A stretch of DNA of 64,000 nucleotides, from NCBI GenBank assembly GCA_963749075.1, contig CAVVLJ010000017.1, positions 608,001 through 672,000 of the forward strand, read 5' to 3'. Shown one piece after another: positions 4,941 to 56,158 of the stretch. The notes below the pieces were generated by a model that made no database searches, was not told the DNA's origin, and was given only the letters and a program-made list of their open reading frames with translations. How positions within the stretch are numbered: position 1 is the stretch's first letter; the number at the start of each line of letters is the position of its first letter. Made by a program: the position numbers and the translations under genes. This DNA comes from an uncultured Pseudomonadota bacterium (lineage in GTDB: Bacteria; Pseudomonadota; Alphaproteobacteria; JACZXZ01).

Positions 4941-5140
4941 TCATGGGCCGCAGGCTTCCGGCGGCCAGGAGAAGAGACTCGCTTGGCCCCGTTGCGGAGC
5001 AACCGATCGCGCGCCGCTGACATCGCCGCCGCAGTGCAGCTCCATTATCGCCTGCGCCGCATTGATCCAAGGCGAAGTTCAGGGCTAAGCTCCCGGCGCG
5101 CGCAGGGTCTCGGGCGGAGCGGTGGCAGCCGGAGAACGGC

Positions 5141-6772: not shown

Positions 6773-8193
6773 GCGTGAAAATATTGGTCGTCGACGACGA
6801 GCGCATCATTATCGACAGTTGCCTTCGCATCTTGAGGAACGACGACTATCAGCTCGATGCCGTCCAGGACGGTTTGGAGGCGCTGCGCAAGATCGACGAG
6901 AACCATTACGACATCGTCATCCTGGACATCATGATGCCGAAGATCGACGGCCTCGAGGTGCTGCGCCGCGTCAGGGAGGGGCACCCCGACATCGATGTCA
7001 TCATGATCACCGGACTGTCGCAGATCGAGACGGCCGTGAAATCGATGAAGCTCGGGGCCTTCGACTACCTGCCCAAGCCGTTCGATCCGGACGAGCTCAG
7101 GCTCGTGGTGCATCGCGCGCTGGAGCGGCGGCGATTGCTCCAGGAGAACCTGAATCTCAAGACCGAGGTCGGCGCCAAGTACCGCTTCGAGAACATCATT
7201 GGGGCGAGCCCCCAGATGCAGAGCGTCTTCCGCCTTGTCGCCAAGTGCGCTCCGACCAACTCGACGGTGATGCTCACCGGCGAGTCGGGAACGGGCAAGG
7301 AGCTGATCGCTCGCGCCATTCACTACAACAGTCTGCGCAAGGACAAGCCGTTCGTCCCGGTGGACTGCAACGCGCTCAGCGAGAACCTGCTGGAGAGCGA
7401 GTTGTTCGGGCACGTCAAGGGCGCCTTCACCGGCGCTGTGGCGAACAAGAAGGGCATGCTGGAAACCGCCGGCGGCGGAACGCTTTTTCTCGACGAGATC
7501 GGCAATATCTCCCTCTCGACCCAAGCCAAGCTGCTGCGGGTCATTCAGGAGCGGGAGTTCAGGGCGGTCGGGGATACCAAGACGCAGGCCGCCAACTTCA
7601 GATTGATCACCGCGACCAACAAGGACCTCAAGGCCATGGTCGCGGACGGCAGGTTCCGCGAGGATCTCTTCTATCGGATCAACATCTTCCCCATCCGCAA
7701 TCCGCCGCTGCGAGAGCGCCGCGACGACATACCTGCCTTGGCCTTCCACTTCCTCGGCGTCTTCAGCGGGGAGATGGCGAAAAAGGTGACGGAGTTCTCC
7801 GACGAGGCCATGCGCGTGCTCATGAACTACGATTGGCCGGGCAATGTGCGGGAGCTCGAAAGCACGGTGCAGCGCGCGGTCATTCTGGCGACCGACGCCG
7901 TCATTCGCCGGGCGCATCTGTTCAGCATCGACGAGTTGCCGCCGGGGCTTGCTCTCGACATCCCGAAAACGGGCGAGGAGCTCAAGCAGATCAAGAAACT
8001 TGCGCGCGAGAAGTCGGTCGAGAACATCGAGAAGCTGTTCGTTCTCGATGCGCTCAAGAGAAACGCCTGGAACGCGACCAAGAGTGCCGAGGAGACCGGC
8101 ATGCAGCGCGCCAATTTCCAGGCTCTGATGAGAAAATACAACATCCGGATCCAGGAAGCCGAGCGCGATCCCGGCGAGCCCGATGCCTCGTAG
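6769..8193 (+). CDS. Sigma54-dependent NtrC-family response regulator
   Basis: Receiver domain, GESGTGKE, ESELFGHVKGAFTGA, WPGNVREL, C-terminal HTH; overlaps the kinase stop (GTGA). Confidence 0.95.
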   Translation: MSVKILVVDDERIIIDSCLRILRNDDYQLDAVQDGLEALRKIDENHYDIVILDIMMPKIDGLEVLRRVREGHPDIDVIMITGLSQIETAVKSMKLGAFDYLPKPFDPDELRLVVHRALERRRLLQENLNLKTEVGAKYRFENIIGASPQMQSVFRLVAKCAPTNSTVMLTGESGTGKELIARAIHYNSLRKDKPFVPVDCNALSENLLESELFGHVKGAFTGAVANKKGMLETAGGGTLFLDEIGNISLSTQAKLLRVIQEREFRAVGDTKTQAANFRLITATNKDLKAMVADGRFREDLFYRINIFPIRNPPLRERRDDIPALAFHFLGVFSGEMAKKVTEFSDEAMRVLMNYDWPGNVRELESTVQRAVILATDAVIRRAHLFSIDELPPGLALDIPKTGEELKQIKKLAREKSVENIEKLFVLDALKRNAWNATKSAEETGMQRANFQALMRKYNIRIQEAERDPGEPDAS

Positions 8194-9596: not shown

Positions 9597-10908
9597 CTAC
9601 CCTTTCCGTTGCTCGCGGGCCTTTCGGTTCAGGTATCGCTTGAAGGCCCATCTCGCGGTCAGATGGGCGACGGGCAGCGCGATGCCGCCGAGCAGAGCGA
9701 GGACAAAAAGAACGTCGAGAAACGTGATCCTGGTGCCGCCGATGGCGTAGAAGCCGCCGATCGAATCGATGGAGAAGACGGAGCTCAAGACCTGTTTGCT
9801 GGCGCCATAGCGCACCGGTATGCCGGTTGGGCCGGCGACGGACACCGTGACGCTCTCGAACGCGTCGGCTCCCGCCCGGTGGCAGGTATTGCAATCGCTG
9901 ATCGCCGCGGTCTTGCCCGCGAGCTCGTGCGCCTCGACCCCCGTGCGCACCTCCAAGCGGCCCTTGAGGCTCGTCTTGTCCCCGACGCCCGGGCGATTGA
10001 GCGTCTTGAGCAGCGTCCAGAGCGTCGTCGCATCCAGGCCAGGCTTCCCTGCAGTCGGGGAAGCGGTGCGACTTTCGAACTCGGGAATGCCCACCGGCCC
10101 GGAAACCTCCCTTTGCGCCGTGCTGTCATAGAGGATGAGGTCGACCATCCGCTGCGCCTTCGGCACATGGCAGGCGGCGCAGGACACCACGTCGAAATGC
10201 AGCGCGGCATTCGGGAGCCAATTGCTGTGCGCAGCGAGTGCGCCGGTATGGCAGCCGAGACAGAACGTCCTTCAATCCGTTGACCGCCGAGGGAACGTTC
10301 ACGTCATGGGCGCCGTGGCAACCGAAGCACAGGGGAGCCTGGGTCACGCCTTTGCGGCGTGCCACGCCATGCACGCTCGCGGCATAGGCGGTGAAGATGG
10401 CGCCGTGGCAGGTCTTGCAGGGAACCGTATCCATCGCCTCGGCCGCGCCCTTCATCACCGCGTGAGGCGAATGGCAGCCCGTACAAAGCGGGGCGTCCGG
10501 GTTCCCTGAGCGGACGAGAGCCGCGTGGACGCTTTTATCCCATTCCCCGAACTGATCGCTGTGACAGGTGCCGCAGACTTTGACCATCGCGATGGAAAAG
10601 TCGTGCTTGCTGCTGATGGTGTGCTCCGCCGGAGGATGACTGGCCGGGTCTATGTCGGTATGGCAGCCGGTGCAGCCGAGCGCGCTGTGGACCGATTGCG
10701 CGAAGGCATCGCCGGGTATGTGCAGCGAGAGCGATTCGCCGCTTGCGAGCTGCTTCTCCATCCCCGGAGCCCCATGGCACGCCAGGCATTGCTGGTCGCC
10801 CTCGGAGAGTGCAGCCGCAGATGCCGACGCCGTCATCCCGGCAAGAGCCAGCACGACGGCTGCGACAGCCGCGCCGATCGCGGCCGTAGCGAATGGTCCA
10901 TGTCCCAT
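9597..10908 (-). CDS. Membrane-anchored nonaheme cytochrome c, CbcA-like; +1 indel near 10265
   Basis: Signal peptide and 6 CxxCH in ORF 10126-11055. Removing one base at GACGTTCTGT gives KDVCLGCH and joins ORF 9597-10190 (CAACH, CNTCH, C-terminal TM helix), for 9 hemes in total. Confidence 0.85.
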
Positions 10909-11041
10909 CCCGCCGCCTGAGCCGGGCTTCCTCACGTGCGTCTCCGCATTTTCGTCTCGGTCCCCTTGGCCGCCGCCGGGGCACGCCACGCCCACCTTCC
11001 GATCCTTGCGCCTCTTCTGCACGCGAGCGCTTCGCCGGTCC

Positions 11042-11055
11042 TTGATGCAGATCAA
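11042..11055. promoter_or_regulatory. Perfect FNR/FixK box upstream of the nonaheme-cytb-hemG genes
   Basis: TTGAT-GCAG-ATCAA, intergenic. Confidence 0.8.
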
Positions 11056-11219
11056 ACGCCGGAAGCGTCGTAAGGGAAAGGGGCGGGCGAAACGTCACGG
11101 CTTTGCTGCCCCTCGCCTTGCCCCGCGAGCCTGCTCTCCGCAAGCATAAACGGGGTTAGGGGGCAGCCGCCCCCCTGTTCCCGGAGAAAGCCTCTTCGAC
11201 TCGGCATCGTCTGCCGCGA

Positions 11220-12026
11220 TCAGCCCTGGGCTCCCTTATTGCGCCAGGCCTTACCGCCGATCCACACCAGCATCGCCAACCCGATCAGCGGGAAGAGCAG
11301 GATGTAGGCAAGTGCCACGAACGGCGCGGCGAGGAACATGACCATATTGTAGAGGGACCGGCCGATGGTCCTGCCCGCCTTCTCCTGGCCCGCCGCCCCG
11401 GGTGCCGCTAACGAAGCCCTCCGCTTGCGCCAACCCTGCACGGCCGTCCGGGCCAGCAAGCCCAACCCGATGAACGGGAAGAGCGCGATGTAGGCGAGCG
11501 CCACGAACGGCGCGGCAAGGAACATGGCGACGTTGTAGAGGGACCGGCCGATGGTCCTGCCGGCGCTCTCCTTGCCGACCGCTGCGGGCTGCGCCGCTCC
11601 GCCGGGCTCCGGCGCCGCAACGGCAAGCTGCGGCAGCGTTTCCGCGGGAGGCGGCAGCGCTGGCGCAACAGCGGCATCCAGGCTCGTCTCGATCATTTCC
11701 GGGGTAAGCGGCTTGCGCAGGAACGCGCGCACGCCGGCGGCCTCCGCGCGCGCCTGATTCTCGGCCGTGCCATAACCGGTGATGATCACGACCGGAGTCC
11801 ACGGGCGCTTCGCACGCAGCTGCTCCGCCACCTCGAGCCCGTCCATTCCCGGCATCTTGATGTCGGTGAACACGGCCTCGTAGTCCTCTTGCGAAACCTT
11901 GTTGAGCGCCACCTCGCCGTTCTCGGCGCTGACAACCACATAGCCTTTCCGAGTGAGTACCCGGTCAAAGCTCTTGCCGATGACTGGATCGTCGTCCACC
12001 ACCAACACTTTTCTGATTGCGTTCAT
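11220..12026 (-). CDS. Response-regulator receiver with duplicated C-terminal hydrophobic segments and no DNA-binding domain
   Basis: VLVVDDD, FTDIKMPGMDG, ITGY, FLRKP; then two copies of AGRTIGRSLYNxxMFLAAPFVALAYIxLFPxIGL. Confidence 0.85.
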   Translation of the reverse strand: MNAIRKVLVVDDDPVIGKSFDRVLTRKGYVVVSAENGEVALNKVSQEDYEAVFTDIKMPGMDGLEVAEQLRAKRPWTPVVIITGYGTAENQARAEAAGVRAFLRKPLTPEMIETSLDAAVAPALPPPAETLPQLAVAAPEPGGAAQPAAVGKESAGRTIGRSLYNVAMFLAAPFVALAYIALFPFIGLGLLARTAVQGWRKRRASLAAPGAAGQEKAGRTIGRSLYNMVMFLAAPFVALAYILLFPLIGLAMLVWIGGKAWRNKGAQG

Positions 12027-43726: not shown

Positions 43727-44647
43727 ATGAGGCCGGTCCTCCTCGCGGTCGTCCCGGTCTTCCTCGTCATCGTGCTGGGCGCCGTCCTGCGCCGGCTCGG
43801 CTTTCCCGGCGACGCCTTCTGGCAGCAGACCAACCGCGTCAATTATTACCTCTTCTTTCCCGCCCTCCTGGTGCACACGCTGGCGCGCGCCAGCTTCCGC
43901 GGCGCCGGCATCGTCCCCATGCTGGGCTCGACCGCCTTCGCCATCCTCGCGACCAGCCTCCTCCTCTTCCTGCTGCGTCCGGCGCTCCGCATAGGCGGCC
44001 CCGCCTTCAGCTCGGTCTTCCAGGGGGCGGTGCGCCAGAACACCTTCGTCGGCCTCGCCGCGGCGGCGAGCCTCTACGGCCAGGAGGGCCTGACGCTGGC
44101 GGCCGTGCTGCTCGCGGGCTACGTGCCGCTGGTGAACCCGATCTGCATCGCCGTCTTGGTGCGCTACGGCAGCCGCGGCGGCGGCAGCGGCGGGGCCGCC
44201 CGCATGGCCGCCGAGATCGTGAAGAACCCGATCCCCATCGCTTGTGCTGTCGGCCTCTTCCTCGACCTCTCCGGCATCGGCCTGCCCTTCGGCTCAGCCG
44301 AGCTCCTCGGCATCCTCGGCGAGGCGTCGCTCGCGCTCGGGCTGCTCGCCACGGGTGCCGGGCTCGAGGCCATGGCGGTGCGCCGCCTGGGGCTGCCGAT
44401 CCTCGTGGCCTCGCTCGCCAAGCTCGTCCTCCTGCCGCTCCTCGTGGCGCTCCCGCTCGCCTTCCTCGGGGTGCACGGCTTGGCGCTCTCGATCGCCGTG
44501 CTCTTCGCGTCGCTGCCGAGCGCCTCGGGCTCCTACGTGCTGGCGGCGGTGCTCGGCGGCGATGCGGCACTCATGGCCGCCATCCTGGTGGTCGAGACCG
44601 CACTCGCCGTCGCCACCATGCCGGCGGCCCTGCTCCTTCTCACCTGA
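43727..44647 (+). CDS. AEC-family membrane transporter
   Basis: YYLFFPALL, VRQNTFVGLA, IVKNPIPIA, VLAAVLGGD; many TM helices. Confidence 0.85.
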   Translation: MRPVLLAVVPVFLVIVLGAVLRRLGFPGDAFWQQTNRVNYYLFFPALLVHTLARASFRGAGIVPMLGSTAFAILATSLLLFLLRPALRIGGPAFSSVFQGAVRQNTFVGLAAAASLYGQEGLTLAAVLLAGYVPLVNPICIAVLVRYGSRGGGSGGAARMAAEIVKNPIPIACAVGLFLDLSGIGLPFGSAELLGILGEASLALGLLATGAGLEAMAVRRLGLPILVASLAKLVLLPLLVALPLAFLGVHGLALSIAVLFASLPSASGSYVLAAVLGGDAALMAAILVVETALAVATMPAALLLLT

Positions 44648-44705
44648 GCGGGCTTCTCAGCTGAGCGCTGTTGACGCGAGCGGGCCGGCGCGCTAGAGCG
44701 GCCGG

Positions 44706-45197
44706 GTGTCCGCCGCCAGGCCCAAAGCCGAGACCCCCGCCATCCGCCCGGCGACGCTTGCCGACGTGCCGGCGCTGGTCGAGCTGGAGAACCGCATCTT
44801 CGCGGGCGACCGGCTCAGCCCGCGGAGCTTCCGCCATCTCATCGCCCACGGCCATGCCGCGGTCCTCGTCGAGGAGCGGGAGGGGCAGATCCGCGGCCTG
44901 GCCGTGCTGTTCTTCCGCCGCGGCAGCAGGGCTTCCCGCCTCTACTCCTTCGCCGTGGCGCCGGAGCATCGCGGCCGCGGCCTGGCCAAGGCGCTCCTCG
45001 AAGCTGCCGAGCGCGCGGCTGGGGCGCACGGCTGCACGGCGCTGCGGCTCGAGGTGCACAAGGAGAACCACCAGGCGCAGGCGGTCTATCGCAAGGCCGG
45101 CTACCACGCCTTCGCCAGCTACCCCGCCTATTACCACGACGGCGGCACAGCACTCCGCATGGAGAAGCGCCTCGAGGGCGGCCGGGCGGGCGCCTGA
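44706..45197 (+). CDS. GNAT acetyltransferase (RimI-like)
   Basis: RLYSFAVAPEHRGRGLA, LRLEVHKEN, YYHDGGTALRMEK. Confidence 0.88.
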   Translation: MSAARPKAETPAIRPATLADVPALVELENRIFAGDRLSPRSFRHLIAHGHAAVLVEEREGQIRGLAVLFFRRGSRASRLYSFAVAPEHRGRGLAKALLEAAERAAGAHGCTALRLEVHKENHQAQAVYRKAGYHAFASYPAYYHDGGTALRMEKRLEGGRAGA

Positions 45198-45477
45198 GGG
45201 GCGGCGGCGCGCCGCCGCCGCAGTTTTTTCGCGCGGAGGCAAATTTGCAGTTGAGGCTGCGGCGGGAATCGACGACGATCCGACCCTAGCCCTGATGCCA
45301 GGGCGGGACGGACGATCCGAGCGATGAGCCTGACCCTCGTGTGGACCGCAAAGGCCACAGCACCGCGACAAGCTGCTCCGACATGCCGACTGCGAGCAAC
45401 GACCCCGAGTGCTACGCCCGCGCGATGCGGGCGCAAGCGACGGCGGCTCTGACCATCGCCATGCCCAGGGCCGGCGC

Positions 45478-47043
45478 ATGACCGCGCATATCATCATCGT
45501 CGACCGGCGGGGCGACTTCAAATGGGACGAGGCCGGCCACCCGGTGGCGACCGCGCGCGAGTACCTCTCGCGCCCGGAGGCCTTCATGTCGCGCTACCCG
45601 CGCATCATCAACCTCTGCCGCGACTACGACTACATGAGCTACGGCTACTACTGCTCGCTCCTTGCCGAGGCGCGCGGCGAGCGCGTCATCCCCTCGGTCT
45701 CGACCATCCTCGACCTCTCGCGCAAGTCGATCTACGGCCTCGCCCTCGACGAGCTCGACGAGCTCCTCGAGAAGACCGCCAAGAAGGACGCCAAAGGCAC
45801 CTCCGGGTCCTTCGCCCTCCACGTCTTCTTCGGCATGCCCGAGGAGGAGCGCTACCAGGACCTGGCGCACCAGATCTTCGACCTCTTCCGCTGCCCGCTC
45901 CTCAAGGTGCAGATCAACCCGGGCGAGAAGTGGCGCGTCACCTCGATCGAGCCGGTGCCGCTCAACGAGGTCAAGCCCGAGCAGGAGCCCCTCTTCGTGC
46001 GGGCGCTCGAGGCCTACACAAGGGTCGCCTGGCGGCCGCCCAAGGCCAAGCCGCCGCCGCGCTTCTATCTCGCCGTGCTGCACAGCCCGCAGGAGGCCCT
46101 CCCGCCCTCCTCGCCGCGCACGCTGCAGAAGATCGTCAAGGTCGGCGAGCAGATGAACATCGAGGTCGAGCTCGTCGAGAAGAAGGACTACCACCGCATC
46201 GCCGAGTTCGACGCGCTCTTCATCCGCGAGACCACGGCGCTCGACCACCACACCTACCGCTTCGCCAAGAAGGCGGAATACGAGGGCATGGTGGTGATCG
46301 ACGACTCCACCTCGATCCTCCGCTGCACCAACAAGGTCTATTTGGCCGAGCTCCTGCGCTCGCACCGCGTGCCGACGCCGCGCACCCTCGTCGTCGACCG
46401 CGCGCGCATGGGCGAGATCGAGGCGGAGTTCGGCTATCCCCTCGTGCTCAAGATACCCGACGGCTCGTTTTCGCGCGGCATCCACAAGGTGACGGGCAAG
46501 CAGGAGCTCAAGGACCTCTCGGCCGAGCTCTTCCGCCGCTCCGAGCTCATCATCGCCCAGGAGTTCGTGCCGACCCAGTTCGACTGGCGCATCGGCATCC
46601 TCAATGGCCGCGCCGTCTACGCCTGCCAGTATTTCATGTCGCGCAACCACTGGCAGATCGTGAAGCACAGCGCGAGCGGCCGCTTCTCCGAGGGCGGCTG
46701 CAAGACGCTCGCGGTCGAGGAGGCGCCGCCATCCGTGGTCGATGCCGCGGTCAAGGCGGCGCGCCTCATCGGCGACGGCCTCTACGGCGTCGACCTCAAG
46801 GAGACCGAGCGCGGACCCGTGGTCATCGAGATCAACGACAACGCCAGCATCGACACGGGCTACGAGGACACCGTGCTCAAGGACGAGCTCTACCGCATCA
46901 TCCTCGGCGAGTTCGTCCGCCGCCTCGAGGCGCAGATGGAGCCGATCGGGGTCAATGGCGGGGAGGCGCCCCGCCCGGCAGTCACGAGTGTCGCGAGCGC
47001 GATCGAGCCCGCGCTGCCGTTTGAGGTGGGGAGGAAGGAGTGA
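45478..47043 (+). CDS. RimK-family ATP-grasp ligase with extended N-terminal domain
   Basis: IINLCRDYDYMSYGYYCSLLAEARG, DALFIRETT, CTNKVYL, LKIPDGSFSRG, GLYGVDLK, IEINDN. Confidence 0.9.
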   Translation: MTAHIIIVDRRGDFKWDEAGHPVATAREYLSRPEAFMSRYPRIINLCRDYDYMSYGYYCSLLAEARGERVIPSVSTILDLSRKSIYGLALDELDELLEKTAKKDAKGTSGSFALHVFFGMPEEERYQDLAHQIFDLFRCPLLKVQINPGEKWRVTSIEPVPLNEVKPEQEPLFVRALEAYTRVAWRPPKAKPPPRFYLAVLHSPQEALPPSSPRTLQKIVKVGEQMNIEVELVEKKDYHRIAEFDALFIRETTALDHHTYRFAKKAEYEGMVVIDDSTSILRCTNKVYLAELLRSHRVPTPRTLVVDRARMGEIEAEFGYPLVLKIPDGSFSRGIHKVTGKQELKDLSAELFRRSELIIAQEFVPTQFDWRIGILNGRAVYACQYFMSRNHWQIVKHSASGRFSEGGCKTLAVEEAPPSVVDAAVKAARLIGDGLYGVDLKETERGPVVIEINDNASIDTGYEDTVLKDELYRIILGEFVRRLEAQMEPIGVNGGEAPRPAVTSVASAIEPALPFEVGRKE

Positions 47044-47230
47044 GGCGGGTTGGAGCGGCCGCTATAATTCCGGGTCGGCAGATCAATTCACGGTTGCAAT
47101 CGTTCTTGTTTTGTGCTAAAGACATTAGCCAAGACGGCGGCCCACAAGGCCTCGCGTTGACAGGGGAAGCCACCACAACATATCGTGGTTCACCCGCATA
47201 GCCGAGATTTGCAGCGGAGGGACACTGGTC

Positions 47231-48169
47231 GTGGACATGGCATTTGCAGCCACCGGCAAGGGCCGCTCAGATCGCGACGCGATCATGGCTTGCGAGGACA
47301 ATCTCGCATTCATGCGCCGGCTGCCGAGGGAGTCGATGCAATTGATCGTGACGTCCCCGCCCTACAACATCGGCAAGGCTTACGAAGCCAAGTCGCCGCT
47401 CGATGCTTATGTCCAGGCGCAGGCGGAGGTGATCGCCGAGTGCGTGCGCCTGCTACACCCGCGCGGCTCGCTCTGCTGGCAAGTCGGGAACCACGTCCAG
47501 AAGGGAGAAATCTTCCCGCTCGACATCGTGCTCTACCCCCTATTCCGAGGACATGGCCTCAGACTGCGCAACCGCATCGTCTGGCATTTCGAGCATGGCC
47601 TGCACTGCTCCAAGCGGCTCTCCGGCCGCTACGAGACCATCATGTGGTTCACCAAGTCGGACGATTACGTCTTCAACCTTGACGCTGTCAGGGTTCCCTC
47701 GAAGTACCCTGGAAAGAAATATTTCAAGGGACCGAAGGTAGGCCAACTTTCCGGCAATCCGCTCGGCAAGAATCCGAGCGATGTGTGGATATTTCCGAAC
47801 GTAAAGAACAATCACGTCGAGAAGACGATCCACCCTTGCCAATTCCCGATCGAGCTTGTCGAACGTCTCGTGTTGTCGCTGACGAATCCGGGTGATGCGG
47901 TGTTTGATCCATGCATGGGTGTCGGGTCCACCGTCGTCGGTGCGCTCAAGCACGGCCGCGCCGGCTATGGCTGCGACATCGTACAAGAATACGTCGATGT
48001 CGCGTGGCGTCGCGTCCGTAAGCTTCGCGCCGGCACGCTTAGAACGCGCCCCATGGATAGGCCCGTCTATGATCCAGCCAAACCCCACGGCGGCCAAAGA
48101 GAACCCCGTCACGCCCGCCGGCAAAAGTCCCTCTTGTCGATCGTGGCGGAACTCGAGCGTGGCCTATGA
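47231..48169 (+). CDS. Type II R-M DNA methyltransferase (beta class, probably N4-cytosine)
   Basis: TSPPYN precedes HPCQFP and FDPCMGVGST; overlaps the endonuclease start. Confidence 0.92.
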   Translation: MDMAFAATGKGRSDRDAIMACEDNLAFMRRLPRESMQLIVTSPPYNIGKAYEAKSPLDAYVQAQAEVIAECVRLLHPRGSLCWQVGNHVQKGEIFPLDIVLYPLFRGHGLRLRNRIVWHFEHGLHCSKRLSGRYETIMWFTKSDDYVFNLDAVRVPSKYPGKKYFKGPKVGQLSGNPLGKNPSDVWIFPNVKNNHVEKTIHPCQFPIELVERLVLSLTNPGDAVFDPCMGVGSTVVGALKHGRAGYGCDIVQEYVDVAWRRVRKLRAGTLRTRPMDRPVYDPAKPHGGQREPRHARRQKSLLSIVAELERGL

Positions 48170-48777
48170 GACTCGTCACCCGATATTCGCATCTGAATGG
48201 GCTGGAGTATCTTAAGGTTCATAAGCCGAAGCTTTGGCGGGAGATACGCAGCGTCATCTCGCGGGTCGATGCGGCCACTTGCCGGACCAAGGTCTCGAAA
48301 GAGGTGCGCACGAAGGACAAGCTGCTGTACTCGCCGATCGAGCTGAACAAGGCGGTGAAGGGCGGCTTCAGGGCGCACGGCTGGAGCGAAAGCCGCACGT
48401 CTTATTGGGTTACCTCGGACGCGCGGCTCATCCGCAAGACGATGCACATGACGCCGGCCCAGCAGAAGGCCAAGATCGAAGCGTCGGGTCGCACCCCGAT
48501 TTACTCCTTTAACCAAACCGACTTCGTGAAAGAGCGCGTCGCCGTCGAGGTGCAGTTCGGCAAGTACGCCTTTGTCGCCTACGACCTCTTCGTGAAGCAC
48601 ATGGCATTCTTTGTCGGCGACGTAATCGACGTAGGGATCGAAATTCTGCCCATGAAGGAGTTGCAACAAGAGATGTCGTCCGGCGTCGGCTATTACGAGG
48701 GCGAGCTTTACAACCTAATTCGAGAAGGAAGGAGCATTCCGGCGGTGCCCCTTGTTCTGATCGGGGTTGCTGCTTAG
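48166..48777 (+). CDS. BglII/BstYI-family restriction endonuclease
   Basis: NQTDFVKERVAVEVQFGKYAFVAYDLFVKH, DVGIEILP. Confidence 0.88.
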   Translation: MRLVTRYSHLNGLEYLKVHKPKLWREIRSVISRVDAATCRTKVSKEVRTKDKLLYSPIELNKAVKGGFRAHGWSESRTSYWVTSDARLIRKTMHMTPAQQKAKIEASGRTPIYSFNQTDFVKERVAVEVQFGKYAFVAYDLFVKHMAFFVGDVIDVGIEILPMKELQQEMSSGVGYYEGELYNLIREGRSIPAVPLVLIGVAA

Positions 48778-48885
48778 ATTGAATTTGGCGACATACTGCT
48801 TTGTCATCTATTCCTCGGCAGAGCCGACTTCCAAGGCAGCGAGTCGCCCGGCGTACCGTGGCAGCCGCCAGCGCTCTCGGCATGG

Positions 48886-50034
48886 CTACCGACGTATGGC
48901 CTTCCGACGGGCTTTCGGCCGCAGCACCAGCATTAATTCGTCCGCGTGGTGGCGCGCCGCTCGGCCAGACAGTTCGTCTCCGTCCGTCCGTGTCCCACCA
49001 AGGGTACTGAACGTGCTCTTTACCCTACGTTCTTCTAGCCGGAAGTGCCGCTGTGCTATTTCGCGCACAAGATTTCCTGAAAGGCCATTAGAACAATCGT
49101 AGTTCGGGAATGTAACTATACCCGTTGCACCGACACACGATAATGTGCGCAGCAAGTCTTCGAGTGCGCCTGCGGATTCGCCTTTGAGACTGTATTTTGA
49201 GCGTGGCCGGTGCCGCGGAGCGGGATATCGTCCCACACCTGATACTGCGCCGCACTTGCCGACCGCTATTGTTTCGAGGACGTGATAGAATCGGCTGTAG
49301 TGAACCCCTGAATAGGGCGGATCGATAAAGACGAGGTCGCCGGCCCGGAGCGTGGGGACTATTCTATTTGCATCTGACCGCTCAGCATGTCCCTGTCGTT
49401 GCGCAAACTCCAGAGAAATCTGTTCGAATGCTTCCCGCGTCACGTCGGCAATATCACGCTTCCACGCGTCCGCTATAAACCGCTTTGCGGTTCTTGTCGG
49501 TTGAAATGGCTGCGCGGTGTGTCCCGGCGCGGCAGCCGACTTGCTAGCGGCATGGATGAGCGCCGCAAGAGCTACGGTTTTGTCCGGCTTTCGCGTTGGC
49601 AGACTTGCTCTCAACGCGTCAATCCAAGTTGCTTGTTCCGGACTAAAGTAATGTCCACCATACGCTTGGGTGACGACTCCCGATTGCGCAGCGCTCCATT
49701 TGCGATAGTCGGCGACAACAGAACGCGTGAGTCTCTCAGACCAAGGTACAGAGACCTTGTCTAACCATGCCTGCGCGGAGGCATGCCATTTCCTCCACAC
49801 TGCTCTCGCGCCGAGCGCGGCTACGCGACCGATAACGGCCTCAGCCAATACCACGCTATATTGTTGAAGATCGACAGCCAACACCGGAAGGGCAAAGCGC
49901 CGAGCCGCAAACGAAGCTACAGCGCCTGAGCCAGCGAATAAGTCCACAAAACGATCCGCCGAAGCGAGCTCCTTTTCAAGAAGGAGCCCGAGGCCGTTCC
50001 GCAGCATCGCCCGTTTGGACCCCATATATTTCAA
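48886..50034 (-). CDS. DNA adenine methyltransferase (alpha class)
   Basis: KYMGSK, DLFAGSG before FIDPPY, HYSRFYHVLET. Confidence 0.88.
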   Translation of the reverse strand: MKYMGSKRAMLRNGLGLLLEKELASADRFVDLFAGSGAVASFAARRFALPVLAVDLQQYSVVLAEAVIGRVAALGARAVWRKWHASAQAWLDKVSVPWSERLTRSVVADYRKWSAAQSGVVTQAYGGHYFSPEQATWIDALRASLPTRKPDKTVALAALIHAASKSAAAPGHTAQPFQPTRTAKRFIADAWKRDIADVTREAFEQISLEFAQRQGHAERSDANRIVPTLRAGDLVFIDPPYSGVHYSRFYHVLETIAVGKCGAVSGVGRYPAPRHRPRSKYSLKGESAGALEDLLRTLSCVGATGIVTFPNYDCSNGLSGNLVREIAQRHFRLEERRVKSTFSTLGGTRTDGDELSGRAARHHADELMLVLRPKARRKAIRR

Positions 50035-50057
50035 GTCTCACCTATACCCAACCGCCT

Positions 50058-51406
50058 TCAGCTTGGAGTCAAACTCCAAACGGCTACGCGCTCGCAACTG
50101 CCAAGCCCGACAAGCGCTTGACCGAGCTCACTTCCAACGCGGAAGAATGTCTGCTCCTCCCGTGGATGCCTGTTTTGAAAGATGTCGAGATCCCGCAAGA
50201 GCGGCTCTATATCCGCCCAGAGATCAAGTAGATCGTCCGCGCCCTTTGCATTATCCCACAGTCCACGCGATTGGCCCATACGCTCCCACCAGAAAGCTAT
50301 GGCATCGGACGTGAATCCCACTGATTGAAAGAGATCCGCGATCGAGCCCGATGCGACACGCAACAAGAGCGTCGCCCGCGCAACGATGGCGGAATGGCTA
50401 TTCTCCCTCGTTCCTGGCGAGATTCTTCGAGAATTCGAAAATGCTCAGGTTATCGGGGGCATTATTGCGGCAAAGGAACTTAAGCCATCGTTCTGCCGCG
50501 TCCTTGGAGAAACCCTGATTTTCCACAACCCTGGACGCGAGTTGCCGAAATCCTGTTGGATCGCGCGCGGCCGAAACGCCATTTTGTCCCTTGAAAATGG
50601 ATTCTACCGCCAAGCGCAGAATATGGCGATCAATCGTGTCAAACCGAGAGGGCTGGGAGGGCTCCAGAGCGAGCCAGATGTCTCGTGCGAACGTGAGCGT
50701 CTTGGATGGATCAAGACACCATGCATCCGGCATCCCGTCCGGACGGTAGCTCGAACTCGTTTCGAGCTTCTCTATCCTCCGTAGGCAATTGAAGATCCAT
50801 GCCCCATTGCAGAAACCATTCCTTGGCCTGAGGTGCGGCAACACTGCCACCGCCCAGCGGTGCAAGCCAGTCGTCCAACGTACGACCGTTAGGTCGTACG
50901 ATCGAGGCGAACAGATCACCAGACATAGGTTGTGCGCACCAATATTCCAGGCAGTCCCAAACAAATACATGGGTCGATGATTGGGCTCTCAATGCGGCCA
51001 CCGAATTGGGGGCGTCAATGACGAAATGGTACCTGTCAAAGACGCCCACGCCAGTTGTCGCGAGAAGCGACATCGCAGCTCGAAGCTCGGCGTAATAGGC
51101 TAGGTGGCGCGCCCTGTGGGGATCGCCGCGTAAGAGGGAGGAGATCGCCTTTCCGAGGTAACTCCACCCATCTGTACAATGCAGTAGACAGCTAGCTGCG
51201 ATGTATTGCGACAATTGACGTGGCCTTTTAAGGGCACCGGCTTTGCTTTCGAAAGCTATCTTCTTCTTTGTATCGATCACATACCAGTTTCGCTCACCGA
51301 CCCATCTTGAGGTTTTTGCAAAGTGCCTCAAGCCCGCCAGGGTCTTTTCGACATTTTTGCGCTTCAGCGATTGGACCGCGCCAAAATTGTGAGGGCTAAG
51401 TGACAT
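50058..51406 (-). CDS. Uncharacterised protein of about 450 aa with HEPN-like motifs; two +1 indels (~50756, ~50420)
   Basis: ORFs 50711-51406, 50398-50970 and 50058-50366 join on removing two single bases. HLAYYAELRAAMSLL, STH and restored ARNESSY resemble HEPN signatures. Confidence 0.65.
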
Positions 51407-51408
51407 AG

Positions 51409-52934
51409 TTATGCCGGCCGATGCAAGCGTTTGGCAGCTTTGCCGACGTCACCTTGGCAAGCGCGGAGATGTTGGAGGAGCTGTGCCCGCAGCTCCTTGT
51501 AACCGCTGCTTCCTCTGAATACGAGCTTCTGTCGGCGCAGGTCTTCAGAAATGTTCGGGGCGGAGCTCGTGCGCCAGTCGAAAGTGGCAAGCCCGATCGC
51601 AATACTCTCCAGGAATGCTGCCACAGGCTCATAGCAATGGATTTCAGCGCCACAGTAACCGCACCCGCGTCGCTTGCTGAAGCCTTTTTGTCGAGTTGCC
51701 ATGTATCAAGCCGGAGATGGGGCGCCATAACAAAGCACAAATCATTGACTACGTGCAGGAAACCGCGCACACCCTGGTCGGTGACGATGAGCGAGCAGTT
51801 ACCGTAGAATGCTGGATCTTCTGATTTCGTGATCGAGACGCGTTGCCGCTCTGCATCCGCCCGCAATTCGACGGCCCAGGGCTCTTCGACGGCATGAACA
51901 GCTTTGGAGAGTTTCTGCCAAGCGAAAATTAGAAAAGCCGCCTGCTGCGCACGGCTCCAACCGAGAACTTCTCCACCTTCTCGAAGTCGGGAACCGAACA
52001 ACCCCCCGATTTTTGTGCCACGACCATCCCAGGATCGTACAAGCGTGGCCATTAGCGCCTTTATCCACGCCGATTGCGTCACCCAGCTGATGTGACGCTC
52101 GCCTAGCATGTTTATTCGATCGTACCAGGGGCTGTCGGAGTGCGACCAAAGAGCCTCCGTCAGCTCCTGCGACCGCGTCTCCCGATAGATCGGATGCCCT
52201 TCCGCCTTGTCCAGCCAATCCTCGGCCCTGAGCAAAGGGTACAAGTCGAACGCGAGGCTCGGGTTTATTCGCTTCGGCTTGATATTGATGGTCCAAAAAA
52301 GATACGCCTGCCAGCTCACGTCTAGTCCGCTGAACGCCACGACTGGCACCTCGAATCCGGCGGCGGTGGAGTCCTCTTCGAATGCCCAAAGCCGATGTTG
52401 GCCGTCAATTACTTCCAAAGGCGGCACCGCGGATGGCCGCCAAGTTTTTGTCCAATTCGAATATGGCAGTGCAATGGTACAAGAGCCCTCGTCGTCATGC
52501 ACTGTGAGGAGGTCATGCTCCGCCACTTTGCCACCTGGGCGTACGTCCGATTTGTGAAGAATGTTGATCACAATAGCAGTTGGCAACCAACCCGGCTTTC
52601 GCAGATCGTAGAACTCAGTCGTCTTGCGCTTTGCCGTACTCAGTGTGGACCAAGGATACCCGAATTCAACGAAGCGCGAGATTTCCTCAGATCGTTCTGG
52701 ATCATGTTGTCGCTGGATGCCGAGGTCGGCAGCGCGTGGCGTGACACCAGATGTCTGACGGCGCACGATTCCACACAGACTGCGAAGCTCCTGTGCAGAA
52801 AGCGAGAACAGATAGAAATGCGGCGATGGCTTGGCTCGATGGTGGGCGGAATCATACTGCACGCGATTCCAGGCCTTGAGCCATTGATGAACCTTAATGA
52901 CGGGGATACGCCGACGTTCTTCAGGCTTAGCCAT
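51409..52934 (-). CDS. DGQHR-domain protein (DndB/DpdB-like, ParB/Srx fold); -1 indel near 51632
   Basis: GIQRQHD, LPTAIVINI, EVIDGQHRL, LFWTINIKPKRINPSL. C-terminus continues in frame 51409-51702 and ends 2 nt before the next ATG. Confidence 0.88.
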
Positions 52935-53057
52935 CCCCCTCCCCCGTTTTCATACACGGCATTTTGCCCGGCGATACGAGAAAGGACAACCCCGATTGTA
53001 TAGGCGGTCCACTTTTCTACCGGCACCGCAACATCCAGGCGCGAACTTCCGCCCCCC

Positions 53058-53080
53058 ATACTGCGCCTTTAATGACCGCC
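53058..53080 (+). repeat. 23-bp direct repeat of the pyrB promoter/start region (other copy 53833-53855)
   Basis: ATACTGCGCCTTTAATGACCGCC versus ATACTGCTCCTTTAATGACCGCC, 22/23 identical. Confidence 0.85.
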
Positions 53081-53128
53081 GTAAGAGCCAATCGCAAAGG
53101 GCGCCGCGCTCTTCTGTCCGCTCGCGCC

Positions 53129-53482
53129 TCATGCCTCCCGCTTTGCTCTCGGCGACACCGCGAGCCCGAGAAATACGAGCACGGCCCGGTTGAGCCGCAG
53201 GATATCCTCGTCGTCCAGGCGTCCGAGACGCGCGCCGAGCTTCGATTTTGGCACGGTGGTGATCTTGTCCACCATTAGGCGGCAGCTCTCGCGCAGTCCG
53301 TTTCGCTCGTTCGGCGCAACGCGCAGGCGGAACAAGGGCGCTTCTGTCTCGTCGCTGGTGAAGGCGCAGATGGTGATGGAGTCCGTTCCGTCGAAGCTGT
53401 CGTCCTGCAGGATGACGACCGGACGCGGTTTGCCCGCATAGCCCTTGCCGCCCGAGACGGTCCAGACGTCTCCCCGCCTCAT
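53129..53482 (-). CDS. PemK/MazF-family toxin
   Basis: MRRGDVW, YAGKPRPVVILQDD, NGLRESCRLMVDKITTV. Confidence 0.9.
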   Translation of the reverse strand: MRRGDVWTVSGGKGYAGKPRPVVILQDDSFDGTDSITICAFTSDETEAPLFRLRVAPNERNGLRESCRLMVDKITTVPKSKLGARLGRLDDEDILRLNRAVLVFLGLAVSPRAKREA

Positions 53483-53704
53483 TCATCGCCCCGATCCGAC
53501 ACCGCGTCGATGAAGGCCTGATCCTCGCGCGCGCGTGCGCTGGCAGCCACGGCGCGCGACTGGCGATGGGCCTGTCGCGCGGAAGGCGGGCGAGCGCACG
53601 TCGGGCACCCAGATCTGGATGGGGCGCAGACCCTGCCCGCGCAGCCGCTCGCGATGTTCTCGCACCTTCACGCGGGAGGGCTTCGGCTGAGATGTCGAGG
53701 TCAT
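53479..53704 (-). CDS. MazE-like antitoxin (DUF3018-type); +1 indel near 53575
   Basis: [29 protein letters not shown], continuing AHRQSRAVA...[10 protein letters not shown] after one-base correction; palindrome GTTACATGTAAC at 53723-53734. Confidence 0.8.
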
Positions 53705-53846
53705 GGCATTCCTCCGCCAGCAGTTACATGTAACCTAGCACGGGCAAGGAGGTTGTGCCAGACCTGTCCGCCGGCCCCGCGCCACTGACATCCGACCTTC
53801 CGCGTCCTTGCCCCACCCCGCCCCCACCCGCTATACTGCTCCTTTA

Positions 53847-54830
53847 ATGACCGCCTTAGCCCCTCTCCCCGTGTTGCGCTTCCCGCACCGGCATCTCCTC
53901 GGCATCGAGGGGTTGACTGCCGAGGAGATCACCTTCCTCCTCGACCTCGCCGAGTCCTACGTCGAGCAGAACCGCCAGGCCGACAAGAAGAGCGCCATCC
54001 TGCGCGGCCGTACGGTCATCAACCTCTTCTTCGAGAACTCGACGCGCACGCGCACCTCCTTCGAGCTGGCGGGGAAGCGCCTGGGCGGCGACGTGATCAA
54101 CATGCAGGTCGCGGCCAGCAGCATCAAGAAGGGCGAGACGCTCATCGACACGGCGATGACGCTCAACGCCATGCACCCGGACGTGCTGGTGGTGCGCCAC
54201 TTCGACTCGGGCGCCGTCAAGCTCCTCTCCGAGAAGGTCAACTGCTCGGTCATCAACGGCGGCGACGGCAGCCACGAGCACCCGACGCAAGCGCTCCTCG
54301 ACGCCCTCACCATCCGCCGCCGCAAGGGCCGCATCCGCGGCCTCGCCGTCGCCATCTGCGGCGACATCCTCCATAGCCGGGTCGCGCGCTCCAACATCTC
54401 GCTCCTCAACATCATGGGAGCCAAGGTGCGGGTGGTGGCACCCCCCACCCTCCTTCCCGCCGCCGTCGAGCGGCTCGGCGTCGAGGTCTTCTACGACATG
54501 CGGAACGGCCTCAAGGACGTCGACGTGGTGATGATGCTGCGCCTCCAGACCGAGCGCATGCACGGCTCCTTCGTGCCCTCGATCCGCGAGTACTTCCACT
54601 TCTTCGGCCTCGATTACGCCAAGCTCGAGGTGGCCAAGAAGGACGCCATGATCATGCACCCGGGTCCCATGAACCGCGGCGTCGAGATCGACAGCGAGGT
54701 GGCCGACGACATCGGCCGCAGCGCCATCCACGAGCAGGTCGAGATGGGGGTCGCCGTGCGCATGGCCTGCCTCGATTCCCTGACGCGCCGCGGCCAGCGC
54801 GGGAACGAGGGCGACGGAGCCGAGGCATGA
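53847..54830 (+). CDS. pyrB: Aspartate carbamoyltransferase catalytic subunit
   Basis: [43 protein letters not shown]. Confidence 0.97.
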
Positions 54831-56158
54831 GCATCCCCCAGGGGATGCGCCCCGGCCGCACGGCCTATCTCGACGTGCGCCTCCTCGACCCGGCAAGCGG
54901 GCTCGACGCGCGCGGGGCGCTCTTGACCGAGGGCGAGACGATCGCCGACTTCGGGCCCCGCCTCTTCAACGACGGCGTGCCCGAGGGCATCGACGCCGTC
55001 CACGGCCGCGGCGCCTGCTTGGCCGCCGGCCTCGTCGACATGCGCGTGCAGCTCTGCGAGCCCGGCGAGGAGCACAAGGAGACCATCCAGACCGGAAGTG
55101 CCGCCGCCGCCGCGGGCGGCGTCGCCGCCATGGTGACGCTGCCCAACACCGAGCCGGTGATCGACGACGTGGCCGGCGTCGAGTTCATAGCGCGGCGCGC
55201 GCGCGAGGTGAAGCGCGTCAAGATCTACTGCCACGCCGCGGTGACCAAGGGCCTCGCCGGCAGGGAGCTCGCCGAGATCGGCCTCTTGCAGGAGGCGGGT
55301 GCGCTCGCCTTCACCGACGGGCTCAAGGCGGTCGCACACCCGCTCGTCATGCGCCGCGCCCTCTCCTACGCGCGCACCTTCTCGGCACTCGTCATCCAGC
55401 GCCCCGAGGAGCCGGAGCTCGCCGAGGGCGGTGCGATGAACGAGGGCGAGGTGGCGACGCGCCTCGGCCTCCCCGGCATCCCGCGCCTCGCCGAGGTCAT
55501 GCTGCTCGAGCGCGACTTGCGCCTCGTCGAGCTCACGGGCGGGCGCTATCACGCAGGTCCCCTCTCGACGGCGGAGGCGGTCGAGGCGATGCGGCGCGCC
55601 AAGGCGCGCGGCCTCGCCGTCACCTGCGACACGGCCCCCCACTACTTCACGCTCGACGAGAGTGCCGTCGGCGACTACCGCACCTTTGCCAAGGTCTCGC
55701 CGCCCTTGCGCCGGCCCGAGGACCGCGAGGCGCTCATCGAGGGCATCGCCGACGGCACCATCGACGTGATCGCGAGCGACCACGCGCCCCAGGACCAGGA
55801 CAGCAAGCGCCAGCCCTTCGCCCAGGCGGCGGCCGGCATCATCGGGCTCGAGACGCTGCTGCCGCTCTCGCTCGCCCTCGTTCACGACGGCCGGCTCGGG
55901 ATTCTCCAGGCGCTCGCACCGCTCACCTCTCGGCCCGCGCAGCTCCTCGGCCTCGCCGCCGGCCGCCTGGCCAAGGGGGCGCCAGCCGATCTCGTGCTCT
56001 TCGATCCCGATGTGCCGTGGACCGTCGAGGAGAGCCGCTTCCGCAGCAAGTCGAAGAACTCGCCCTTCGCCGGGCGCGAGGTCAAAGGCAGAGCGCTCCG
56101 CACCATCGTCGACGGCCGCCCGGTCTTCGTCGACGGGGAGGCCGGGAAACGGCTATAA
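54827..56158 (+). CDS. pyrC: Dihydroorotase-like protein (PyrC/PyrC')
   Basis: GLVDMRV (His pair absent, as in inactive PyrC'), [20 protein letters not shown]; coupled to pyrB. Confidence 0.9.

Follow-up and report, generated by a model that had tools for sequence, protein, structure and literature searches.

Gene organization of the trio

A 64,000-nucleotide stretch from an uncultured Pseudomonadota bacterium (contig CAVVLJ010000017.1, positions 608,001 to 672,000; hereafter the window) was analysed for a three-gene cassette on the minus strand of 48886-52934, in which a DGQHR gene is followed by a middle gene, whose product is called the partner here, and then by a D12 adenine methylase gene. 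The DGQHR gene (51409..52934), coding for a ParB/Srx-like and DndB-related protein recognized by TIGR03187, contains a −1 frameshift at about 51631-51632. When read straight, its open reading frame (ORF) runs from 52934 to 51396 and specifies 512 amino acids (aa) with the motif VIDGQHRLW and an out-of-frame tail; comparison with homologues places the true C-terminus in the frame of the ORF 51702..51409. The partner gene (50058..51406) corresponds to a mostly helical protein of 448 aa with a predicted HEPN-like core and no known family, and is distributed in the window over three ORFs, 51406..50711 (231 aa), 50970..50398 (190 aa) and 50366..50058 (102 aa). The third gene (48886..50034, 382 aa) is intact and codes for a D12-class N6-adenine DNA methyltransferase, the 'type A' methylase of the cassette.

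An earlier note on this DNA, made from the letters alone, had described three tightly coupled genes with gaps of 2 and 23 nt, and these distances hold if the stop of the DGQHR gene is taken at 51409-51411, in the frame of the ORF 51702..51409. Its further claim, that repair of the middle gene from its three ORFs reveals motifs, was also borne out. The first middle ORF carries AYYAELRAAMSLL and SSTHVFVW, and RNESSY is readable only across the first break, where the intact relative P0001 has ARNESSYRPDG.

Conservation and mobility of the trio

A pattern scan of one genome per species, in which loci were found via the partner, yielded 49 loci in Pseudomonadota, Actinomycetota, Chloroflexota, Planctomycetota, Acidobacteriota, Armatimonadota, Spirochaetota, Myxococcota, Binatota and the archaeon Methanoregula. 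In 47 of these the partner gene is immediately preceded by a DGQHR homologue, the other two (L048 and L049) being fragments only. The pair is adjoined by a D12 methylase in 38 of the 49 loci; type A homologues of 374-404 aa lie directly downstream of the partner gene in 25, and the remaining 13 have a Dam-like enzyme (type B), placed upstream in L023 and present as a split remnant on the opposite strand in L019. Successive genes commonly overlap stop to start by 4 nt. Since this gene order recurs in dozens of unrelated genomes, the arrangement is beyond chance and the trio is a real conserved unit, as the earlier note had supposed.

The modification gene varies around the constant pair. In L020 (4478-8061; Brevundimonas viscosa) a whole MT-A70 methylase gene (PADLOC MTase_II, 294 bits) directly adjoins the pair from the opposite strand, the DGQHR gene being split there (222 + 280 aa) and the partner gene whole. 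After the pair come DndC (655 bits), Uma2 and a DndD-like ATPase in L030 (4328-11861), and DndA (322 bits) on the other strand and then the contig end in L031 (299-4034; Methanoregula); linkage of the pair to dnd genes is confined to these 2 of 49 loci. Of the 41 loci in which a modification gene adjoins the pair, 39 have one for N6-methyladenine (m6A). In L001, L035 and L038 the pair is intact and the neighbour scan (nearest gene on each side) showed no modification gene, L033 ends 400 nt past the partner gene, and L010, L042, L048 and L049, which are broken or partial, were left out of the neighbour scan. All-against-all clustering revealed no further gene conserved with the trio, the rest being shared by few loci or representing antisense shadow ORFs. 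A conserved nuclease gene does not accompany the trio, in agreement with the earlier observation that the operon holds no typical restriction nuclease; the same applies to DpdA and TGT genes and to transfer or replication genes.

In a quick maximum-likelihood tree of 39 partners, type A is found on every deep branch, whereas type B is limited to a single well-supported clade of 10 and L023. The methylase-less and Dnd rows are scattered within the tree, and the rows from Chloroflexota, Myxococcota and Spirochaetota fall together on short branches. The neighbour scan covered 85 nearest neighbours in 45 loci, with no matched background, and recorded integrases, resolvases, RepA, TrbL and a relaxase-like protein (L005, L011, L012, L014, L018 and L024) as well as the defence-type neighbours PDC-S06 (631 bits), SoFic (384 bits), a type I methylase and Mrr-like, DRT-like and HEPN_RiboL-PSP proteins; many loci are chromosomal with housekeeping neighbours. 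The cassette is also carried by plasmids of Zymomonas and Rhizobium tumorigenes, and 5 of 5 plasmid records were typed as non-mobilizable; a search of 50,697 phage records gave no match. As judged from these sequence comparisons, the cassette is mobile and spreads horizontally.

Intact cassettes occur in strains that are harmless and can be cultured, namely in Bradyrhizobium (B. shewense ERR11, L003), Chelativorans sp. J32 (L018) and Sandarakinorhabdus oryzae (L013, with the Dam-like type), and on a 30,952-bp Zymomonas mobilis plasmid (NC_013788.1; L105). In the plasmid record the products of the three genes (4514-8176) are given as 'DGQHR domain-containing protein', 'hypothetical protein' and 'Dam family methyltransferase'. 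Two genes and about 1.9 kb downstream, at 10082-11805, a DUF4433 and a macro-domain protein are encoded, a pairing reminiscent of DarT/DarG.

The DGQHR protein

The window protein scores 66.3 bits against TIGR03187 (64 bits in the genome search), above the cut-off of 58.85, and its motif D177-G-Q-H-R181 is invariant in 40 homologues. The Pfam DndB family (PF14072) is matched at 25.4 bits, below its gathering score of 29.1, over model positions 13-159 of 338 (23.8 bits in the genome search). Comparison of the DGQHR alignment with DndB by hhalign gave a probability of 86.7% (E 4.4e-6) for the ParB-like domain only.

The structural model, built for the L003 homologue, has a predicted local distance difference test score (pLDDT) of 85.3. 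A VIA search with this model returned for its N-terminal part, all at low scores, the ParB-like domain of PadC (Z 6.6; root-mean-square deviation (rmsd) 2.7, 99 residues aligned), pNOB8 ParB-N (Z 6.5), sulfiredoxin (Z 4.8 and 4.5), KorB (Z 4.6) and Osa (Z 3.0). Foldseek found nothing in the PDB at E <= 0.001; its best row was ParB 7bm8 (E 0.26), and SspE 6jiv ranked seventh (E 0.36). These fold matches to ParB/Srx proteins are weak yet mutually consistent, and the model would thus fit a ParB/Srx-like domain in the N-terminal part. No clear fold match was obtained for the helical C-terminal half.

A second DGQHR-domain protein, of 765 aa, is encoded in L022 (6950-9244), starting directly after the trio methylase. 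It matches Pfam DndB at 47.5 bits and PADLOC DpdB at 66 bits, and is aligned by hhalign to the trio DGQHR domain with a probability of 97.9%.

The methylase

The third gene matches PF02086 (MethyltransfD12) at 56.6 bits and PADLOC MTase_II at 83.5 bits, and its translation contains DLFAGSG and DPPY; by family and motif it is a D12 N6-adenine methylase with its catalytic motifs present. When 400 other genomes of the phylum were sampled, the partner was found in none and the type A methylase had no close relative, only one distant match at 26% identity; DndB was found in 23 of the same genomes and PF18737 in 16.

The methylome of Zymomonas strain ZM4 was considered as a possible sign of a silent trio methylase and was dropped. 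It contains three m6A motifs, all of which are assigned (PMC8432527), and the record of the trio-bearing plasmid (pZZM405), labelled ZM4, is stated to stem from strain CP4 (PMC5930841), so that this methylome is uninformative on the trio.

A fusion of the partner to the D12 methylase is seen in P0270 (805 aa); the protein collection yielded no other fused form. In L032 (5917-8397), whose contig equals that of P0270 in length (234,708 bases), the partner and methylase are read as a single 826-aa ORF, and the DGQHR gene of the same locus is split. The fused form may be an indel artefact.

The partner protein

Among word-sharing candidates, 795 relatives of about 447 aa were found, none with a precomputed Pfam domain. 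A search of 1.84 billion proteins gave 1230 representatives at 50% identity, of which 919 reach E <= 1e-30; the best 150 of these 1230 matches, which were the ones examined, are all near-full-length and include no distant named relative. The three pieces of the window gene match nothing in Pfam, NCBIfam, PHROGs or PADLOC. A Pfam search with 40 intact partners at E <= 1 produced chance rows only, the best being DUF4398 (3 of 40, E 0.022); none of the 40 matched a HEPN family, and no helix–turn–helix (HTH) or other DNA-binding family was recognized in them. A sequence search of the PDB with the partner profile gave a single chance row (E 0.63). In the ESM Atlas the nearest clusters are unnamed, the sole named lead being YaaC at 0.78, which is under the threshold of the tool, and hhalign gave a probability of 0.08% against the 765-aa DGQHR protein of L022.

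The model of the partner, calculated from P0001 and 40 sequences, is of high confidence (pLDDT 89.7, predicted template modelling score 0.91) and is nearly all helical, with one small hairpin. A VIA search of 48,161 representative chains placed HEPN domains in all of the top five positions, viz. 2hsb (Z 8.7; rmsd 3.1, 125 of 126 residues aligned), 1ufb (7.8), 1wol (7.8), 4nqf (7.7) and 3o10 (7.4), each of which is aligned almost over its whole length to residues of about 60-360 of the model. These values are to be read with the caveat that a Z under about 13 can reflect a common arrangement in helical proteins. Lower matches comprise Csm6, HEPN toxins, the C-domains of aminoglycoside nucleotidyltransferases and AbiV. 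Foldseek, proposed in the earlier note as a check on the repaired protein, gave nothing against the PDB at E <= 0.001.

The residues invariant across phyla include H76, D79, H101, Y104, Y105, T145, H146, D204, D211, R215, N216, Y220 and R343, and E107 is nearly invariant. The invariant motif R215-N216-x-x-S-Y220 has the spacing of the HEPN motif R-N-x3-H, with tyrosine replacing histidine, and borders a loop of low confidence (residues 217-226, pLDDT < 50). The catalytic motif Rx4-6H is absent from the partner, and the last helix of the aligned range has R343-x5-R349 without a histidine. The HEPN likeness of the partner, as seen in the model, is suggestive only: the HEPN-like middle protein of the earlier note agrees with the five best fold matches, which have middling scores, and has no backing from a profile link in sequence or from the motif, which is R-N-x3-Y.

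Predicted complex of the DGQHR protein and the partner

Complex prediction with the L003 pair gave an ipSAE of 0.63 (median of three runs), as compared to 0.00 for the best of three controls. The mark used for ipSAE is reached by 116 of 157 solved complexes and by 2 of 215 mismatched pairs, counts that apply only roughly here because the complex model was built with our own alignments. The runs share at least 83% of their contacts, and the pLDDT of the partner is at least 85. The contacts of lowest expected error join residues 471-476 of the DGQHR protein, a nearly invariant R-G-S-x-G-Y, with residues 393-397 of the partner, which include the invariant W395 and D397. At the level of the model, these values support binding of the DGQHR protein and the partner to each other.

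Frameshifts in the window copy

The state of the copy in the window was assessed with the soil metagenome run X1, whose Logan contigs hold 95% of the sampled words of the 64-kb stretch. The three pieces of the middle gene align to residues 1-219, 215-328 and 321-448 of P0001 at 81, 75 and 79% identity, with no deletion, so that the gene carries two single-base shifts. At each of the two break points, 50423 and 50754, a single letter is missing from an X1 contig (953 nt, depth 4.5) that is otherwise identical. Without these two letters the middle gene becomes a single ORF of 448 aa, with 364 of 448 residues identical to P0001 in an ungapped alignment. Because the X1 contig, lacking both extra letters, gives one ORF, the breaks in the partner gene are probably assembly errors of the window, or else a variant of a minor strain. 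The same kind of extra letter may underlie further apparent frameshifts in this genome.

The frameshift in the DGQHR gene, which the earlier note does not mention, is of a different nature. Homologues in 48 loci continue in a single frame into sequence that the window encodes in the other frame, and an X1 contig over 51446-52793 shows no gap at this position, reproducing the frameshift. It replaces the last 75 or so residues, past about 434, and thereby deletes exactly the predicted contact segment 471-476, leaving the ParB-like domain untouched. Programmed frameshifting was considered as an explanation and is unsupported, as 40 of 40 aligned homologues are single-frame.

Since the predicted contact motif is deleted, this copy is probably disabled apart from its methylase. 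We hold it slightly the better bet that the cassette of this genome is a functionless relic, in which only the methylase acts, as an orphan. This is favoured by the occurrence of the DGQHR frameshift in independent X1 contigs and, as far as the window assembly goes, by the two further breaks in the partner gene; against it stand the absence of those breaks from the X1 contig, by which the partner gene is probably whole, the intact ParB-like domain, and the contig depth of 4.5-6.5, which is compatible with a mixture of strains. The relic reading bears on the condition of this copy and can be combined with every reading of the family. For this genome, the smaller practical point is that the first gene is frameshifted and that the two apparent breaks in the second are likely assembly errors.

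Flanking genes and the low-GC island

The trio lies in an island at 47.1-53.7 kb with a GC content of 0.55-0.60, as compared to about 0.66-0.75 in both flanks, and this trio-bearing island is horizontally acquired. Within it the trio is flanked by a BglII-like restriction–modification (R-M) pair and by MazEF. The R-M pair (47231-48777, plus strand; type II, from Pfam and PADLOC matches) is intact, and its genes overlap by 4 nt. Its methylase (312 aa) matches N6_N4_Mtase at 167.3 bits, and its endonuclease (203 aa) matches Endonuc-BglII at 118.1 bits and PADLOC REase_II PDLC03442 at 310.7 bits. The only other locus with such a pair near the trio (1 of 49) is L028, where a BglII-like pair 62-66% identical to that of the window lies about 1.5 kb downstream of the trio in the other orientation. 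With this rarity, the other orientation and a different degree of divergence, the earlier suggestion that the trio guards the neighbouring R-M system was not sustained.

On the other side, a MazF/PemK-like toxin (71.7 bits) and a MazE-like antitoxin (55.1 bits) are encoded on the minus strand at 53129-53704. MazEF is flanked by a 35-nt direct repeat of 86% identity (53049-53083 and 53824-53858), the second copy of which falls within the first codons of the ORF 53808..54830. The repeats look like a target duplication from insertion of the MazEF module or of the entire island.

The intergenic region 52935..53128, upstream of the trio, is presumed from its position only to bear the promoter. A scan for the sigma-70 consensus gave a number of sites not above that of shuffled sequences, with zero sites in this region, and promoter and terminator scans of the window likewise showed no excess over shuffles. 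No tRNA genes were found in 44000-56000. Among the sequencing runs listed as containing the stretch, none was of RNA.

Functional interpretation

From its conservation and context, the trio may be read as a mobile, modification-linked defence module of the R-M kind that has no name in the libraries and literature searched, a reading to which about an even chance is given. The adenine methylase would mark host DNA. The DGQHR protein would be a nucleotide-dependent DNA-binding protein of the ParB/Srx type, and its heterocomplex with the partner would read the modification state and attack invading nucleic acid that bears no mark. Given its HEPN-like four-helix core and its invariant His, Asp, Arg and Tyr residues, the partner would likely be the catalytic or effector subunit. 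The modification enzyme would be exchangeable, being one of two D12 types, MT-A70 or Dnd. In this scheme the defence function, the assignment of sensing and cutting to one or other protein, and the substrate are what we infer.

Several observations led to the defence reading. The DGQHR-partner pair is strictly linked to a DNA-modifying enzyme of varying type, and the cassette is mobile and lies near integrases, resolvases, conjugation genes and defence proteins. In the window it sits in a low-GC island between an R-M pair and MazEF, and on the Zymomonas plasmid two genes away from the DUF4433 and macro-domain pair. The breaks in the window and in L020 hit the first and second genes and leave the methylase whole. 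The predicted binding of the two proteins and the rarity of the type A methylase, which equals that of the partner in the 400 sampled genomes, point in the same direction. Precedents are offered by SspE/GmrSD (PMC10853773) and by the operons of ParB, HEPN and methylase genes (PMC3710099).

A number of points weigh against this reading. The HEPN likeness of the partner is weak and the canonical Rx4-6H is absent, a recognizable DNase fold was found in none of the three proteins, and the literature searched yielded no experiments on any family member. The genomes of L001, L035 and L038, where the intact pair has no modification gene as nearest neighbour on either side, hold only unlinked Dam-like methylases, with 36-39% identity to type B; such methylase-less pairs fit poorly with a pair that would be lethal without its own methylase. 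Both characterized DGQHR proteins are described as acting on the modification side (DndB, PMC4507180; DpdB, as cited in PMC12839542), and the L030 pair occupies the position of dndB, upstream of dndC. A sequence-specific restriction partner is not easily reconciled with an exchangeable methylase, and the count of defence-type neighbours comes without a matched background control.

A more specific form of the defence reading takes the pair as a generic reader-effector of 'marked self' in a new kind of R-M, in which a ParB/Srx nucleotide switch and a HEPN-derived protein with tyrosine for histidine would replace the endonuclease, and the mark would be m6A, made by three unrelated methylase types, or phosphorothioate. 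It is put forward tentatively, its probability falling somewhat short of even.

The defence reading has to be weighed against the view that the pair is a DndB-like control or accessory module, which would repress, load or limit the methylase (or the Dnd enzymes) the cassette then being an epigenetic or self-marking module with no effector of its own. This main rival is held to be rather unlikely. The ParB-like domain is related to DndB, which is reported to repress transcription of dndBCDE (PMC4507180), but the similarity stops after this domain, and the partner is unrelated to DndB (hhalign probability 0.25%) and has no recognized HTH or other DNA-binding family. The position of the pair ahead of the methylase in one operon (apart from L023, with its Dam-like gene upstream), directly upstream of DndC in L030 and beside DndA in L031, is as expected of a controller, as are the intact pairs with no adjoining methylase in L001, L035 and L038 and the failure of structure searches with the partner and DGQHR models to find a nuclease fold. 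However, about 950 residues with many invariant polar positions are large for a repressor, and the mobility, the defence-type neighbours and the decay of the first and second genes beside a whole methylase better suit a costly effector.

That the cassette is instead a selfish or mobile-element maintenance module (addiction, anti-restriction or plasmid exclusion), in which the methylase shields element DNA and the ParB/Srx protein hits competitors in the manner cited for Osa, is improbable: integrases, resolvases, RepA, TrbL and relaxase-like genes adjoin it in several loci, it is present on the Zymomonas and Rhizobium tumorigenes plasmids, ParB/Srx proteins with ATPase and DNase activity are described in plasmid conflict (PMC12839542, PMC10853773) and the Osa structure is among the weak fold matches of the DGQHR protein, but the trio has no transfer or replication gene as a conserved companion, many loci lie on chromosomes among housekeeping genes, the phage records contain no match and all five plasmid records are non-mobilizable.

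If the trio is a defence system, it would represent an R-M-type mechanism without a classical nuclease, and a family of about 1200 clusters that lacks a Pfam model would gain a function. It would also tell whether DGQHR/DndB-like proteins belong with SspE on the restriction side or with DndB on the control side; the side on which DndB acts is posed as an open question in Dnd reviews (PMC10853773). Because the pair stays constant while its modification gene is swapped (two D12 types, MT-A70 or Dnd), the proposal is directly testable.

Comparison with known systems

Searches of PADLOC-DB v2.0.0 placed the trio in no named system, as the earlier note had anticipated. None of three intact partner members matched, the methylases matched only the generic MTase_II models, and the DGQHR protein gave only a weak DpdB match of 23-26 bits in two of three intact homologues. 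No description of the trio was found in the literature searched on DGQHR, DndB-like and MAE_28990/HEPN plus methylase systems.

The type II R-M systems with D12/Dam methylases resemble the trio in that a PF02086 methylase is tightly coupled to non-methylase genes, moves horizontally and often lies in defence islands. They possess a restriction nuclease, whereas the trio has no conserved PD-(D/E)xK, HNH, GIY-YIG or other nuclease and in its place two proteins of about 510 and 448 aa; sequence-family searches found no nuclease family in the first or second gene.

DpdB of the Dpd 7-deazaguanine system, cited in PMC12839542 as an ATPase that aids base insertion, is like the first trio protein a DGQHR ParB-like protein. 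The DpdB scores of the trio protein are, however, far below the level of members, as compared to the 66 bits of the second DGQHR protein in L022. DndB of the Dnd phosphorothioation system shares with the trio protein the DGQHR motif, the ParB/Srx-like domain and the place upstream of a modification gene. It is a single protein of about 360-390 aa, whereas the trio consists, besides its methylase, of a DGQHR protein of about 510 aa with an unrelated helical C-terminal half and a separate 448-aa partner. The operon contains no dnd genes, as had been noted earlier, and DndC was not found in this genome, which is 96.3% complete. DndB is described as a transcriptional repressor of dndBCDE; a 2024 reappraisal leaves its role as regulator, NTPase or co-effector open and calls SspE the DndB equivalent in Ssp (PMC10853773).

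As read here, the trio has in common with SspABCD-SspE, GmrSD and BrxU a ParB-like NTPase as the sensing part of a modification-linked defence. The motif of the SspE/GmrSD/BrxU type is DGQQR, as against DGQHR in the trio. In these systems DUF262 is fused to a DUF1524/HNH nuclease; the trio has neither HNH nor DUF1524, and its second activity would sit in a separate helical protein of no known family. The ParB-like NTPases of SspE and GmrSD type are reported to work on the restriction side (PMC10853773).

Operons of ParB, HEPN (MAE_28990) and methylase genes were noted computationally in 2013 by Anantharaman et al. and predicted to be R-M-like conflict systems (PMC3710099, Table 1), and to that extent the novelty claimed for the trio in the earlier note is qualified: no name was found for it, and a similar combination had been recorded for other families. 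As in the trio, a ParB-superfamily gene lies directly before a HEPN-type gene, with DNA methylases nearby. In a sample of PF18737, the upstream gene was ParB-like in 10 of 10 loci, and methylases lay beside two. The ParB-like protein of these operons is DUF262/GmrSD_N of about 360 aa (10 of 10), as against DGQHR in the trio; the HEPN protein has about 215 aa with the canonical E...RNxxAHG, as against a 448-aa partner with R-N-x3-Y; and the methylase is not a fixed third gene, unlike that of the trio. Comparison of the partner with 11 MAE_28990 proteins by hhalign gave a probability of 0.1%, and PF18737 has no match in this genome. The ParB-HEPN(MAE_28990)-methylase class of 2013 is thus the nearest printed precedent of the trio, analogous to it in architecture and different from it in both protein families.

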